Assembly: GCA_018061105.1 (NCBI GenBank)
Contig: JAGOUU010000001.1
Location: 8,425-72,424, forward strand
DNA length: 64,000 bases
From: Gammaproteobacteria bacterium
GTDB taxonomy: Bacteria > Pseudomonadota > Gammaproteobacteria > JAGOUU01
Reading direction: 5' to 3'
This document shows, piece after piece, positions 48,001 to 60,000 of this stretch (its first letter is position 1; the number at the start of each line of letters is the position of its first letter). The position numbers are program-made.

Positions 48001-51000
48001 ATCTTGTATTTCTTGAGCCATATTTAATAATATTGGCGTTGCGAATAAGCCTGGAGCAATAGTATTAACTCTAATGCCAAAACGGGCTAATTCACGGGCT
48101 GCAGGTAAAGTTAGGCCAACTACTCCTGCTTTAGATGCCGCATAAGCTGCTTGACCTATTTGGCCTTCATAGGCTGCTACTGAGGCAGTATTAATAATAA
48201 CACCGCGTTCACCGTGTTGATTAATTGGATCTAACTGGCTCATAAGATTGCTAGCTAGCCGCAAGATATTAAAAGTCCCATTGAGATTAATATCTATAGT
48301 CTTGGTGAAATTCTCAAAGGGCATGGGCCCAGATTTACCTACGATTCTTTGTGCTGGAGCTATCCCGGCGCAATTAACGTATATTCGAGGCGTTAATGTT
48401 TTATGTTGTAGGATTTGGAAAGCTTGCTCAACACTTGTTGCATCTGACACATCGCAATAGATAGCCAAGCCATTTAATTCAGATGCTATAGCCTCAGCTG
48501 CGCTTGTGTTATTATCTAAAATAACGATTTCAGCGCCATTGGCTGCTAAACTTTTAGCCACTGCAGCTCCAAGTCCAGAGCCACCACCTGTAATTAAGGC
48601 AGTATTTTTATTTATTTCCATATTTTAATTCTCTAAAAATAATGTCTAAAGTTCTCTATTTAAGAAACTCTTTGCTCATAGCTTTGAACAAATCTGTGCC
48701 AGATTTCTCCAAGCATTCAAAAACAACCATTTCTTTAGTTAGCAGAAAAATATTATTTTGTATCATTCTTTGGATACTGTATTGTTTGTCAGTATTATTT
48801 CTGCTTCCTATCGCATCAGCCACTACATAGACCTCATAGTCCATGTTTTTTAAATCTAAAGCAGTTTGTAAAATACAGACATGTGCTTCAATCCCGCATA
48901 ATATAACTTGCTTTCTATTTAGAGCTGCAAGTCTATCAGTAAAAATAATATCACGGGCAGCGGAAAAAGTAGTTTTTTCTATAATAGCATCAATAGAAAT
49001 ATGTTGCCTAATAATCAAAGAAGTATTGCCTAAACCAGAAGGATACTGCTCGCAGGCTAACAAAGGTATATCTAATTTGACAGCTGCCCGAGCAAGCCAC
49101 TCACAATTTTTTACTAATTGCTCTTGGTCGCAAATTTTTGGTAATAACTTTTCTTGAAGATCGACAACGATCAAAGCACACTCATTGAGTCTAAGGGTCA
49201 TAAAAATAAGTATATAAGTATGTTAATTATAAGCTTTTGTATAATATTAAATAGTTTACTATATTTACTATAATCTATAAATTTTATTAAAATTATTTGA
49301 TTACAGAATGTTCAGAAAAATAACTAAATCTATCCTGAAAGTTTTATTAATTATCCTAGTGATCATAGCAATAATAACTGTCTATATGAAATACAGTGGT
49401 AATTGCAGTGTGCTAGGTCAGGATTACGGCAAAATTGTGTGCCGGGATAAAAACACTAGTATTAGTAGCTCTGTTAAGAAAGTCATTGCAGATAAAAAAG
49501 TTTATTTTCATAAATCTCCAGCAGCTCAACCAGCTCAACTTGCTAAACCTGTTAAATCGAGTGCCAGTTTGCCACCATCTTCTCCACCGCCTCCGCTTCC
49601 GCCACCAATTTATGAAACGCCAGCTTTATTAATAGCCAATAATAAATTAACTATAACAAGTCTGCGAGCTGCAAAGATTAAATCATTACCATACACTGAT
49701 GGGCAATACTTTGCTAAAGATGATGTGCTTGTAATTTTAGATTGTAAAGAACTAGAGTTCGATCTAGCCTTGCAGCAAGCAGTTGCAAAAGATAAAGCAG
49801 CAAATTTAGAAAATTTAAAAAAATTACAAAATCTCAAATCAACTAGTGAGTATTCTGTAACTGAAGCAGAATCTCAATTAGATCAAACCAATAAACTTAT
49901 AGAAAAATTACAATATCAAATAACTACCTGTGTTATTAAATCTAACTATGCTGGTAAAGTTATATCAACTAATGTAACTGAAGGTGAGTTTGTATCTGCT
50001 GGTCAAGCGGTTATGACTGTTAATAACACTCAAGATCTAGTTATCAAAGCCTACGTACCAGCAGCTTGGTTAACTTGGTTGCAAATTGGTACAACGTTTA
50101 AATTATGTTTCAATAAAGAATGTCATCGTGGTGTAGTTAATAGAATAGGCGCAGAAGTTGATGCAACCAGCCAAACTGTAGATGTATTTGGTAAATTAAC
50201 CGAAATTAATATTGATCCTAACAAATTAATAGCAGGCTTAAGTGGTGAAATTACTTTTGATAAATAAATTATAATAAAATGCCTATACAATCAGAACAGT
50301 TTCAACAAGTGTTAGCATTACAAAATAACTTATATGATTGTGAAGAATACAAAGCAATCACAGACTTTATTGTCAACGACACTTTTAAACTCATAAAATA
50401 CCAATTAGCTGTAATTTTTAGTTATAGCCAAGATAAAAATAAAGCTAATATTATAGAAATATCTGGGACAATAGATACCAAAGATCAAAGAATTAGTGCA
50501 GAATTTAACGCATGGTTGCATAATGTTTTAAAAAAAATATCTGAAAATTTTTTAAACGCATCAATTTTAGAGCAATTTAAAAATAATAAGATTATTTTAA
50601 TTCATCCTGATCAATTAACCTCAGAAATTAACCAAGGGTGGGCAGAAAAATTAGGTAAAGAATTATTAATAGTTAAGTTGTCTGAAAATAGATATTTAAT
50701 ATTATTTAATAATATTATTTATCCAGAAGCTGAAATAATTAATCTTAATTTAATTTCAAAGTCTTATCAGCAAGCTTTAAAAATAAACAAAAAAAATAAA
50801 AAGTTAATTATAACTAAAAATTCTTATTTTCATTATATCAAAAAAAATATTCTCTGGATTATCCTAGGATTAATTATTACCATTATGTTTGTAAGAATTA
50901 CGCCTTCGGTCATGGCACCAGCGCAGTTGATCAGTGAGCAGTCGTTGTTGATTAACGCTCCTATAACAGGAATAATTAAACAAGTTTACATAGAGCCTAA

Positions 51001-57000: not shown

Positions 57001-60000
57001 TAGGTAGTCTGGTTTGTACGGTATGTACTACAGCTATAGTCCAAGCTGGAGCTTCACAGTGTCCTAATGCAGCTATATCGAGTTCAGGCCCTGCAGGCTT
57101 TTCTGCTGCTGTGAGTACACCTATAAAGTTTGATATAGCGCGCTACTATACTACGACATTGCAGGATTCTCCAACCTATTCTCTTAATCCGGCTCTCCCA
57201 GAGCTTCCTACTGGCTTAACACTTGATAAAAACACAGGTATTATTTCAGGTACGGTTGATAACTCTACTTCAGGTACAGCATCTGTCATGGTGTCAATTG
57301 GAAGTGGCACATTAAATATACCAATAACTTTTGCGATAGGTAATGGATCCTCTGGAAGTGGATCCGGCGGTGGAGCAGTTTCAATCTCTCCAACCGCGAC
57401 AGCGGAGCGTTGTGCTATTGGGTTTTATTCACCTACAGGCACAAATCAGTCTCAATCTTGTAGTCTATGTCCAGCCAACACTACAAACATAATCGTAGGA
57501 AGTACAATGTGTTCTCCTATAGATACAAGCTCTATTGGCACACCTTGTTCGCAAAATTTTTATTCGCCTACAGGTACTGATCAACCTACAGGTTGTCAAC
57601 AGTGTCCAACTGGTTACAGCAATGTTGGGATGGGTGGTACTATGTGTACCCTTGATTCACAACCTACTATAAAGGGAACTCCATGTAAATCAGGAGATTA
57701 TTCGCCTACTGGTACTGATAATCCGACACTCTGTCTTCCGTGCCCAAATGGTACTACAAATGGTCTTGTAGGGATGTCTCGCTGTGGTCCTGCGCAAAGC
57801 AATTCTCCACCGACTGGCTCTGCAATACAGTGCCTTAATAATACCTATTCACAAAACGGCTCAGGTTTTGCTCCTTGTGAGCCTTGTCCAAACAAGTGGG
57901 TAACTCCTGGGCCTGGGGCAACATCAATTTCAGAATGTACAGCTTGTGGTAATGGTAATATTGAAAGTCCTGAGGCTTGTGATTTGGGTACGATTTTTAA
58001 TGGCAAAGGGTTTGGATGTGCTCTTGACTGTACTGTTGATCAGACTTCTAATTGGAAATGTGTTAACCCGACTTCTACGCCTCATGATTATAAATATTGG
58101 ATTACAGACAAGGCTAATCCGGACAGCTTGTATAACTTATATCGAGATCTCACACGTTCATATGTTAACCCTATATTAACTACCCCGCCTCAAGGCCCTG
58201 GTTATCGTATTGATACAGGCACAGCTGAGAGCTATTGTAATCCCATTCAACCAGGTTGGGGGGAAGCTTGTAAACAATATACAAAAGATATAATTCAGTT
58301 TAAACAATTAAATAATAATAATTCGATAGCAACTGCTTTTAATGATCCCACGGGGCAGTCTACGTTTTGCGATAAATGGCCTAGGGTGTTTGATATCACG
58401 GCATCACCACCAGCACCATATCAGATAAAATGTATGCCTGATGCTGCGAATTATGTGAATTAATAGATTTTAATATTATCTTACTTTTTGATATAACTCG
58501 TGCAAATTATCAATCATATAAAAAGGTAAATATAAAACATTATTCTCAAATGTTAAATTTCTGGAAGAAATAATCACTCCGCTATTTGCTTTATTACACC
58601 AGCCGCCGCACTATTAGAGGCATTCGGTAAGCTGAGATTTGCCAGTTTTTTAAGTATTCTTCAAGTTTTCTATACATATTTTTATCCTATAATGAAATAT
58701 GACGCTTTATTTTTGAAGTCTAAATTAAACTAGTTTTACATGTCTGTATAATTAGGCCCACCGCCGCCCTCAGGTGTCTGCCAATTAATATTCTGTAAGG
58801 GATCTTTTATATCACAAGTCTTACAGTGCACACAATTTTGGCTGTTGATTTGTAAATAAGGTTTATTGTCTGCATTATATAAATACTCATAAACTCCAGC
58901 TGGGCAGTAATATTGCTCTGGGCCATGATACTCAGTAAAATTAATTTTTACGGCTAGATCTGGATTTAATAATTTTAAATGCGATGGTTGATGCTCATTA
59001 TGATGTGTATTAGCTAAAAATACTGACGATAATCTATCAAATGTAATTTTATTATCTGGTTTTGGATAATTAATTTTTTGGCTATTTTTTATTAAAGTTT
59101 TATGATCTTGATGGTGTCTTAAAGTCCAAGGTGTTTTGCCGTGTAGAACATAATAATCAAAAGCAGAATAGGCTAATCCTGGGAGTAAGCCAAAATTAAA
59201 GCTAGGCCTAATATTTCTTATTTTATATAGTTCTGAATTTATAACTGAATGATTGATGTTATCTTGATAATCAGTAATTTCAGTATTTAAAATATTATTG
59301 ATTTTAAAATTTTCTACTACAGATTGTGCTGCAATCATGCCTGATCTAATAGCATTATGTGTGCCTTTGATTTTAGCAATGTTAAGAAATCCTGCTGCAT
59401 CGCCAATAATTAATCCACCAGGAAAAGTTAATTTAGGGATGCTTTGATAACCGCCCTCGGTAATGGCTCGTGCGCCGTAGCTCAGACGTTCGCCGTTTTC
59501 AAATAAAGGCTTTAATTTTGGATGTAATTTAAATCGTTGGGATTCTTCAAACGGGCTAAAATAAGGGTTTTTATAATCTAAACCCACGACAAAACCATAG
59601 GCTATTTTAGAATCAGGTAAATGGTAAATAAAACTACCGCCATAAGTTTTATAATCAAGAGGCCATCCTATTGTATGTTCTACAAGACCTAATTGATGAT
59701 GCTTGGGATCTATTTGCCAGATTTCTTTGATTCCTAGACCATAAGTTTGAGGGGCTGAATGCTGAGCTAAATTAAAATAATTACTAATCTGTTTTGTGAT
59801 TGAGCCCCGGCTGCCTTCAGCTAAAATAACTTGCTTAGCATGGATTTCTACGCCTGGTTGGTATAAATCAGTTTTGTTACCTTGTTTATCTAGGCCAAGA
59901 TCATTTGTTTTTACACCATAGACTTGATTATTTTTTATTAAAGCTTGTGATGCTGCAAAGCCAGGGTAAATTTCTATTCCCATATTTTCTGCTTGATTTG

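Follow-up and report, generated by a model that had tools for sequence, protein, structure and literature searches.

A membrane fusion protein/M50 protease gene triad in an uncultured gammaproteobacterium: a probable reduced member of a widespread T1SS-like envelope system next to a variable slot occupied by Cys-rich genes

We have analysed a stretch of 64,000 nucleotides from a low-GC gammaproteobacterial lineage (assembly GCA_018061105.1, contig JAGOUU010000001.1, positions 8,425 to 72,424; hereafter the window, in whose coordinates all window features are given), with attention to a block of five plus-strand genes at 49308–58463 separated by intergenic gaps of 11, 35, 86 and 78 bp. The first three genes, which we call the triad, encode two membrane fusion proteins (MFPs), MFP1 (319 aa, 49308–50267) and MFP2 (463 aa, 50279–51670), both recognised from the open reading frame (ORF) call and a HlyD profile, followed by a 721-aa protein (51706–53871) in which an M50-like metalloprotease with an HExxH motif is fused to a further MFP matching HlyD_3. 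Behind them lie the genes of two Cys-rich proteins, protein 1 (895 aa, 53958–56645) and protein 2 (579 aa, 56724–58463), identified by ORF call and by matches to Ephrin_rec_like and He_PIG. These assignments bear out a preliminary description of the window, which had read the block as two HlyD-type MFPs, a third with a polytopic HExxH N-terminal half and two Cys-rich proteins. Its remark that neither an ATP-binding cassette (ABC) ATPase nor TolC lies nearby can be extended to the whole 64 kb: a hidden Markov model (HMM) built from the outer-membrane factors (OMFs) of the triad family detected no TolC-like OMF in the window, the sole window ORF touching an ABC HMM (25831–26805, E 1.8e-4) is DotB, and a regular-expression scan of the window ORFs for Walker A plus an LSGGQ-type signature gave no match. 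The SecA motor motif (GEGKT...DEVD) was likewise absent from six-frame translations of the window, a motif-based search that a very divergent SecA_DEAD protein could escape, and no ORF near the triad and the Cys-rich genes reaches 900 aa.

MFP1, a periplasmic adaptor anchored in the membrane, consists of a transmembrane (TM) helix at residues 9–27, located by hydropathy scan, a Pro-rich linker and lipoyl/beta-barrel MFP domains, with Pfam matches to HlyD_3 (1e-16), HlyD_D23 (2e-10) and Biotin_lipoyl_2 (6e-7). In MFP2 (HlyD_3, 1.3e-8) a single TM helix at about residues 187–212 separates a cytoplasmic N-domain of ~185 aa from the periplasmic MFP part. This N-domain can be aligned across the family and is possibly GAF-like, to judge from a weak GAF signal (E~0.1) in two of seven orthologous N-domains, with none in the window protein itself.

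The third protein combines features of three domain types. Its N-terminal half is polytopic, with some seven to eight TM segments between residues 113 and 435 in the hydropathy scan, and contains the HExxH motif at residues 201–205 as well as the S2P-type N295...D303-G304 signature. In an alignment of 26 homologues, residues H201, E202, H205, N295, D303 and G304, which make up the HExxH and NxxPxxxxDG signatures of site-2 proteases, are invariant. The window protein scores 15.7 bits against Pfam Peptidase_M50 (PF02163), below the gathering score of 27.2, while homologues reach 3.5e-10; all 26 aligned homologues match Peptidase_M50 and 24 of them match HlyD_3. The C-terminal half is an MFP (HlyD_3, 3.7e-5) with an alpha-hairpin at residues 483–538, for which Foldseek gave MacA, MexA and EmrA as top matches at ~1e-11; Foldseek and a profile search of the PDB together returned MacA, MexA, EmrA, ZneB and HlyD. 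With the entire protein as query, the PDB profile search found MacA at 8e-14, MjS2P (3b4r) at 9e-4 over the HExxH region and RseP at 0.3; no PDZ or CBS domain was detected in the fusion protein. At the extreme N-terminus, the Pfam threshold for PqqD was exceeded in all four distant homologues tested, and the match of one of them (P0110; 7e-9, residues 22–86) aligns to residues 33–95 of the window protein. An AlphaFold2 model (pLDDT 84) comprises a beta3-alpha3 N-domain at residues 18–91, a helical membrane core and an MFP with hairpin. From the PqqD alignment, the HExxH/NxxPxxxxDG core, the MFP matches and this model, the gene can be described as a fusion of a cytoplasmic PqqD-like winged-helix domain resembling the recognition element (RRE) of ribosomally synthesised and post-translationally modified peptide (RiPP) systems (residues ~18–95), an M50 protease and a periplasmic MFP.

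Relatives of the fusion protein are widespread. Among the candidates scored we found 173 homologues at E<=1e-3, most of them ~700 aa long and of the same architecture, and a scan of one genome per species placed relatives in at least 597 species. Carriers include Pseudomonas, Halomonas, Chromobacterium, Phytobacter, Nitrospira, relatives of Pelagibacter, Geobacteraceae, Scalindua and a metagenome-assembled genome (MAG) of the Coxiellaceae. Gene neighbourhoods were compared at 80 loci (numbered with the prefix L), each taken with 10 kb on either side; their ORFs were labelled with HMMs for which the window and annotated contigs supplied the seed sequences, and ORFs of fewer than 70 aa were not called. 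In the 37 well-flanked loci, those having at least 9 kb upstream and at least 5 kb downstream, MFP2 was present in 34, MFP1 in 31, a giant ORF of at least 900 aa in 30 and an OMF in 26. The recurrent order is giant ORF, TolC-like OMF (~520 aa), MFP1 (~250–300 aa), MFP2 (~450 aa) and fusion protein (~710 aa), the giant gene being located either upstream of the OMF gene or directly downstream of the fusion gene. All-versus-all clustering of the ORFs yielded just three conserved families, namely the MFP superfamily (79 loci), the giants (55) and the OMFs (51). Contigs with Pfam annotation gave a similar picture: in Aliarcobacter butzleri a giant with cadherin, He_PIG and DUF4347 domains precedes a 448-aa protein, behind which lies the fusion, and in Nitrospirillum the order is a 5718-aa protein, OEP, MFP, a 463-aa protein, the fusion and SapC.

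The window MFP1, MFP2 and fusion genes correspond to offsets -2, -1 and 0 of the distant loci, in the same order and with E values from 5e-19 to 8e-99. The alignments are essentially full-length for the fusion protein and MFP2 (against the Coxiellaceae MAG locus L020 and the Nitrospira defluvii locus L029) and cover the MFP part only for MFP1. Thus, MFP1 is 33% identical to the offset -2 protein of L020 (E 7e-37), while MFP2 aligns, N-domain included, over residues 4–457 with residues 10–453 of the offset -1 protein of L020 (E 7e-40) and matches its counterpart in N. defluvii at E 2.5e-53. The window triad is a reduced member of a kind of module that is already known and uncharacterised, and its intact catalytic residues, together with the conserved synteny described below, argue that it is probably functional.

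An obvious alternative is that the triad is a set of ordinary efflux adaptors, whose ABC, resistance-nodulation-division (RND) or major facilitator superfamily (MFS) partner and TolC are encoded elsewhere, the HExxH motif being incidental. The resemblance of the MFP parts to MacA, MexA, EmrA and ZneB in sequence and fold agrees with this, as does the best named NCBIfam match of MFP1, TIGR01730 RND_mfp (E 3.4e-21), and at NCBI many homologues go by the name 'HlyD family efflux transporter periplasmic adaptor subunit'. Yet even that best match, at 75.6 bits, stays under the cutoff of 94.9; MFP2 and the fusion protein reach 28.4 and 24.3 bits with the same model, the specific efflux equivalogs are all far under cutoff, and TIGR01843 type_I_hlyD, with 28.3 and 25.4 bits against 208.65, was not reached either. 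Moreover, no transporter family emerged as conserved from the clustering of 79 loci of many phyla, which involved no search by name for RND and MFS proteins. ABC-like ORFs with Walker A and an LSGGQ-type signature numbered 10 in total, were mostly small and never lay fewer than three genes from the fusion gene, and the invariance of the protease residues is at odds with an incidental HExxH. We therefore regard the efflux explanation as highly improbable, and the view taken earlier that these are no ordinary efflux adaptors has been upheld.

The pairing of a PqqD-type domain with an M50 protease raises a different possibility, that the triad matures and exports a small RiPP- or bacteriocin-like peptide whose leader would be bound by the PqqD-like domain and removed by the protease. 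The fusion protein does match the models of two such enzymes, NF041824 (daptide HExxH intramembrane protease; 4.9e-33) and NF058609 (YydH/LiaK; 3.5e-10), the PqqD-type N-domain is above the Pfam threshold in the distant homologues mentioned above, and JGI names homologues 'putative peptide zinc metalloprotease protein'. Both matches are nevertheless far below the respective cutoffs (114.8 versus 300 bits and 39.9 versus 225 bits). No radical-SAM, modifying-enzyme or precursor family came out of the 79-locus clustering, which covered ORFs of 70 aa or more and involved no scan by name for such families. The window contains neither precursor nor modifying genes, and the gaps of 11, 35 and 86 bp within and behind the triad are too small for a precursor ORF. 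A peptide-maturation role consequently appears unlikely.

The partner that the neighbourhoods do point to is a giant protein, with examples among family loci L005–L086 at 12202–18393 of L029, 12124–22076 of L059 and 225–6305 of L052. A basic stretch, the LEPR-XLL motif and DUF4347 make up the N-terminus of the giants. For 28 giants the locus includes the N-terminus; in 18 of these, LE[PQ]Rxx[FL]D[AG] occurs among the first 250 residues, and eight more have the close variants LESR, LEER, LEKR, LEAR, VEPR or MEPR, the last of these being changed further downstream too. NF012209 (LEPR-8K), a curated model of the uncharacterised LEPR-XLL motif, matched five of five giants tested with 14–21 bits, one of them above the cutoff of 17, and DUF4347 behind the motif was found at 5e-56 and 8e-52. 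None of the visible N-termini resembles a classical signal peptide. At the other end, a strict regular expression located a He_PIG module 80–190 residues from the C-terminus in 20 of 38 visible C-termini, with a loosely conserved tail behind it. Our literature searches returned no report of a link between the triad family and LEPR-XLL/DUF4347 giants, and this link is the most interesting by-product of the present analysis. The earlier idea of an ABC-less system associated with adhesin-like proteins can be retained for the family as a whole, given its giant ORFs and the lack of an adjacent ABC gene; it could not be retained for the Cys-rich proteins as cargo.

The arrangement of the three genes had been taken as undescribed, a view that has to be corrected. 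In a computational study, Kamneva, Poudel & Ward (2015, PLoS One; PMC4452313) described a module related to type I secretion systems (T1SSs) beside secondary SecA_DEAD proteins, which according to the accessible parts of the paper contains HlyD/biotin-lipoyl, GAF plus HlyD and polytopic Peptidase_M50-like proteins, sometimes an adjacent OEP and no ABC protein, and was left without an assigned function. The authors proposed there that the secondary SecA_DEAD ATPase serves as motor and the M50 protein possibly as membrane pore. In the same portions of the text no substrate is named and the phrase 'large protein' does not occur; the legend of Figure 3 mentions that some neighbours exceed 1,000 aa. 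As far as that account extends, the module has the same three protein types as the window triad, matched by architecture only. It differs in that an adjacent SecA_DEAD gene defines it, whereas the window and the fetched loci contain no SecA motif or other conserved ATPase; for the fetched loci, too, the SecA motor motif was sought in six-frame translations, a motif-based search in which a divergent SecA_DEAD could be missed.

Of the two Cys-rich proteins, protein 1, with 53 Cys residues and an N-terminal hydrophobic segment at residues 13–31, is built from three Ephrin_rec_like (GCC2_GCC3) blocks alternating with He_PIG Ig-like modules, followed by a Thr/Ser/Gly linker and a C-terminal domain. 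It matches Ephrin_rec_like (PF07699) in seven stretches (1e-38; 131.3 bits against a gathering score of 23.1), He_PIG in three (1.1e-13), TNFR_ELAPOR1_6th (1.1e-17) and NCD3G (1.9e-14). Protein 2 has four Ephrin_rec_like stretches (1.6e-21, 76.2 bits), one He_PIG module (2.6e-8) and the C-terminal domain, and a word-indexed search of 5.8 billion proteins returned only itself and one marginal match. Both contain ~6% Cys and begin with a hydrophobic segment consistent with a Sec signal peptide, and their identity amounts to 39% in the last 166 aa (E 2e-27) and to 36% in an N-terminal block, in agreement with their earlier description as secreted paralogues. Their GC content at third codon positions (0.277 for gene 1 and 0.257 for gene 2, against a window mean of 0.234 +/- 0.032) is close to that of the window; codon usage is therefore native, and the higher GC content of the two genes stems from amino-acid composition. 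They share strong Ephrin_rec_like, TNFR_ELAPOR1_6th, NCD3G and He_PIG matches with eukaryotic GCC2_GCC3/ephrin-receptor-like and bacterial He_PIG proteins, but unlike the eukaryotic ones they are bacterial, with Sec-type N-termini, native codon usage and a rare C-terminal domain.

That C-terminal module of ~170 aa, aligned at 56166–56642 in gene 1 and 57945–58460 in gene 2 (both on the plus strand), comprises one DUF4215/TIGR02232-like repeat of the form CGxxxxDxGExCD and a Cys-containing helical domain of ~130 aa. A comparison with TIGR02232 (myxo_disulf_rpt), which the preliminary description had suggested, stayed below the cutoff: protein 2 scored 15.4 bits against 20.8 and protein 1 gave no match; the CGxxxxDxGExCD repeat does recur in distant matches of the module search. 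An exhaustive HMMER search with the shared module found 40 proteins at E<=1e-3. Only ~13 cluster representatives among 1.84 billion cover it entirely, the rest matching just the first ~31 residues, that is, the DUF4215-like repeat, and a model of the module (pLDDT 78.8) had no match among solved structures in the PDB. A signal-peptide-like segment opens all but one of the full-module proteins examined, and the N-terminal passengers of these proteins differ. On this sequence evidence, the module defines a rare, dispersed family. Three relatives have a readable context (10001–11686 of L091, 3407–5002 of L092 and 10001–11848 of L093), and no MFP or M50 gene lies near any of them. L091 lies in another MAG, the metagenome sample of L092 contains an exact copy of Cys-rich protein 2 as well, and L093 derives from the sample that yielded the triad contig L001. 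In L093 the gene is inserted near Rho, PfkB, DapF and IcmW, a place where the window has no such gene.

The relation between the triad and the Cys-rich genes can be assessed in four close relatives (L001, L004, L088 and L089), whose fusion proteins are 47–62% identical to that of the window and which have the same synteny: the BCKDH operon, leucine dehydrogenase, a short-chain dehydrogenase, isochorismatase, the triad, a slot of varying content, ETF-QO and ETF. In the window, the slot (53872–58735) holds the two Cys-rich genes and the ETF-QO gene is convergent. The corresponding interval contains a minus-strand gene of 642 aa in L001 (12206–14134), an ankyrin-repeat gene in L004 (12331–13446) and two minus-strand genes with no Pfam match in L089 (9185–10928), while in L088 (7935–7940) it is empty and ETF-QO starts 7 bp past the fusion gene. 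The slot is hypervariable and behaves as a hot spot for accessory or effector-like genes. Judged by this comparison of sequences, the Cys-rich genes between the triad and the ETF-QO gene represent an insertion specific to the window lineage. As regards L004, a 56%-identical relative (GCA_013558375.1, contig JACCDG011151785.1), the contig numbering of its assembly runs beyond 1 million, which suggests a bacterial symbiont or contaminant in a large eukaryotic genome assembly. Separately, we observed a perfect 17-bp tandem duplication of GTAAATAGATATAGAAA at 53864–53897, overlapping the stop codon of the fusion gene; it lies at the left edge of the Cys-rich insertion, and no copy occurs at the right edge or elsewhere in the window.

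According to the preliminary description, the triad would be dedicated to processing, exporting or assembling at the surface the two Cys-rich proteins, which in such a case would be handed over after Sec export to the periplasm. The native codon usage indicates that the Cys-rich genes are no very recent arrival, and He_PIG modules like theirs also occur near the C-terminus of many giant partners, both of which speak for such a dedication. The same is true of the common strand, the gaps of 86 and 78 bp and the absence of a terminator-like site between the fusion gene and Cys-rich gene 1. Set against these points are the slot, which differs in all four relatives and is empty in one, and the relatives of the C-terminal module, which reside at unrelated loci, those of L092 and L093 included. 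In addition, the LEPR-XLL motif, DUF4347 and the C-terminal tail of the giant type were not found in either Cys-rich protein, and the Sec-type signal peptides of these proteins are unlike the N-termini of the canonical giants. We consider a dedicated system for the Cys-rich proteins very unlikely. An efflux-pump assignment without conserved linkage to the Cys-rich genes had been named in advance as the outcome that would speak against such a system; no assignment of that sort resulted, while the linkage of the MFPs to the Cys-rich genes proved not to be conserved. The sequences indicate that the Cys-rich proteins are most likely not substrates of the triad, and most likely represent independent Sec-exported, eukaryote-like, disulfide-rich proteins of a Dot/Icm-bearing intracellular bacterium.

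Taken together, these data lead us to propose, with a probability of roughly 0.6, that the triad is the inner-membrane core of a widespread, experimentally unstudied, TolC-dependent and T1SS-like envelope system, beside which the Cys-rich genes are a lineage-specific insertion. In this system, three paralogous adaptors (MFP1, MFP2 and the PqqD/M50/MFP fusion) would stand in place of an ABC transporter. The RRE-like domain of the fusion protein might dock the LEPR-XLL leader of the giant protein, and the M50 site could then cleave that leader, by analogy with the C39 domain of bacteriocin exporters and with YydH and MpaP, two proteases acting on RiPP leaders. From their anchors in the inner membrane, the three adaptors would bridge the periplasm to the OMF for export or surface display. 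Energy might be supplied by a SecA_DEAD ATPase of the sort that accompanies related modules, by a transporter encoded at another locus or by the proton-motive force. The window lineage would keep the triad alone at a fixed syntenic site, its OMF and substrate being encoded elsewhere or lost.

Several points weigh against this proposal or limit its reach. We found no experiments on any family member, so that secretion, cleavage and substrate rest on linkage and domain analogy, and the loci share no conserved component that could supply energy, which leaves the proposed transport mechanism incomplete. The clade of the window has no OMF or giant gene nearby, and its triad may have been repurposed or may act on another substrate. 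The neighbourhood statistics describe the 80 loci most similar to the query and depend on a crude ORF caller, and the GAF label of MFP2 is weak at the E value given above. The He_PIG module type is common to the Cys-rich proteins and the canonical giants, and no predicted terminator was found after the fusion gene, so that, with the same strand and the short gaps, co-transcription of the triad with the Cys-rich genes may occur. A more specific version of the proposal holds that in hundreds of species LEPR-XLL/DUF4347 giants are secreted or displayed at the surface by an unrecognised pathway that is independent of ABC transporters and has the triad as its inner-membrane core; the PqqD-like domain and the protease would recognise and remove the leader, and the window would have a reduced copy serving an unlinked or new substrate. 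We advance it tentatively, as something short of an even chance. The further extension that the Cys-rich proteins themselves have become that new substrate is much less likely and has little probability in our view.

Comparison with characterised systems helps to delimit the proposal. Classical T1SSs (HlyB/HlyD/TolC) and LapA-type systems (LapBCE with LapG/LapD) resemble the triad family in having hairpin MFPs suited to docking on a TolC-like OMF. Further common ground is the family-wide linkage to giant, repetitive Ig/cadherin-like surface proteins and the association of a protease with the adhesin, for which LapG is the counterpart in Lap systems. In contrast, a classical T1SS has an ABC transporter where the triad has three different adaptors, and its substrates bear a C-terminal RTX-type signal, whereas the candidate element of the triad family (LEPR-XLL/DUF4347) is N-terminal. 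LapG is a periplasmic Cys protease and the triad protease an intramembrane M50 enzyme fused to an adaptor; the window itself, unlike both kinds of system, has neither an adjacent OMF nor a giant substrate gene. ABC transporters with a C39 peptidase share with the triad the physical coupling of a protease to an export component, and the YydH and daptide M50 proteases share a PqqD/RRE-type leader-binding domain beside an HExxH membrane protease, along with the sub-threshold similarity to NF041824 and NF058609. They differ from the triad family, which has no ABC domain and no conserved modifying-enzyme or precursor family, and whose partner is thousands of residues long. As for site-2 proteases such as RseP, SpoIVFB and MjS2P, the HExxH and NxxPxxxxDG motifs in a polytopic core and the weak profile matches to MjS2P and RseP are common ground, while the fusion protein has no detected PDZ or CBS domain, is fused to an adaptor and a PqqD-like domain and remains below the M50 gathering score.

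The wider setting of the locus is provided by a Dot/Icm type IVB secretion gene cluster at 19715–39429 of the window. It encodes a DotL-like coupling protein (19715–22060, minus strand), DotM/IcmP (22088–23224, minus strand; 9.5e-119), DotB (25831–26805; 3.6e-135), three IcmL/DotI paralogues (27621–30034), a TrbI/DotG-like protein (31244–32659), IcmG/DotF (32681–33706) and a VirB4/DotO-like ATPase of 1012 aa (36391–39429). By its gene content, the cluster marks the organism as Legionellales/Coxiellales-like, and the Dot/Icm components make it probable that it is intracellular and eukaryote-associated. A 602-aa protein with PAN/apple domains (12456–14264, plus strand; PF00024, 1.2e-10) is a further protein of the same genome with a eukaryote-like domain. 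Given an intracellular setting, a variable slot with ankyrin or other eukaryote-like genes is unsurprising.

For annotation, our results imply that it is unwarranted to label the triad as an efflux pump or the Cys-rich proteins as its cargo; the latter rather add to the secreted proteins of eukaryote-like type in an uncultured Dot/Icm bacterium. If the proposed function of the family is correct, many Proteobacteria, Nitrospira, relatives of SAR11 and others would export their largest surface proteins via a TolC-linked machine in which an intramembrane protease stands where a T1SS has its ABC transporter, a distinct secretion route with an N-terminal signal, and the orphan LEPR-XLL motif and DUF4347 would acquire a role. 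The question can be addressed experimentally in culturable carriers, including Pseudomonas, Chromobacterium, Phytobacter, Halomonas and Aliarcobacter butzleri.

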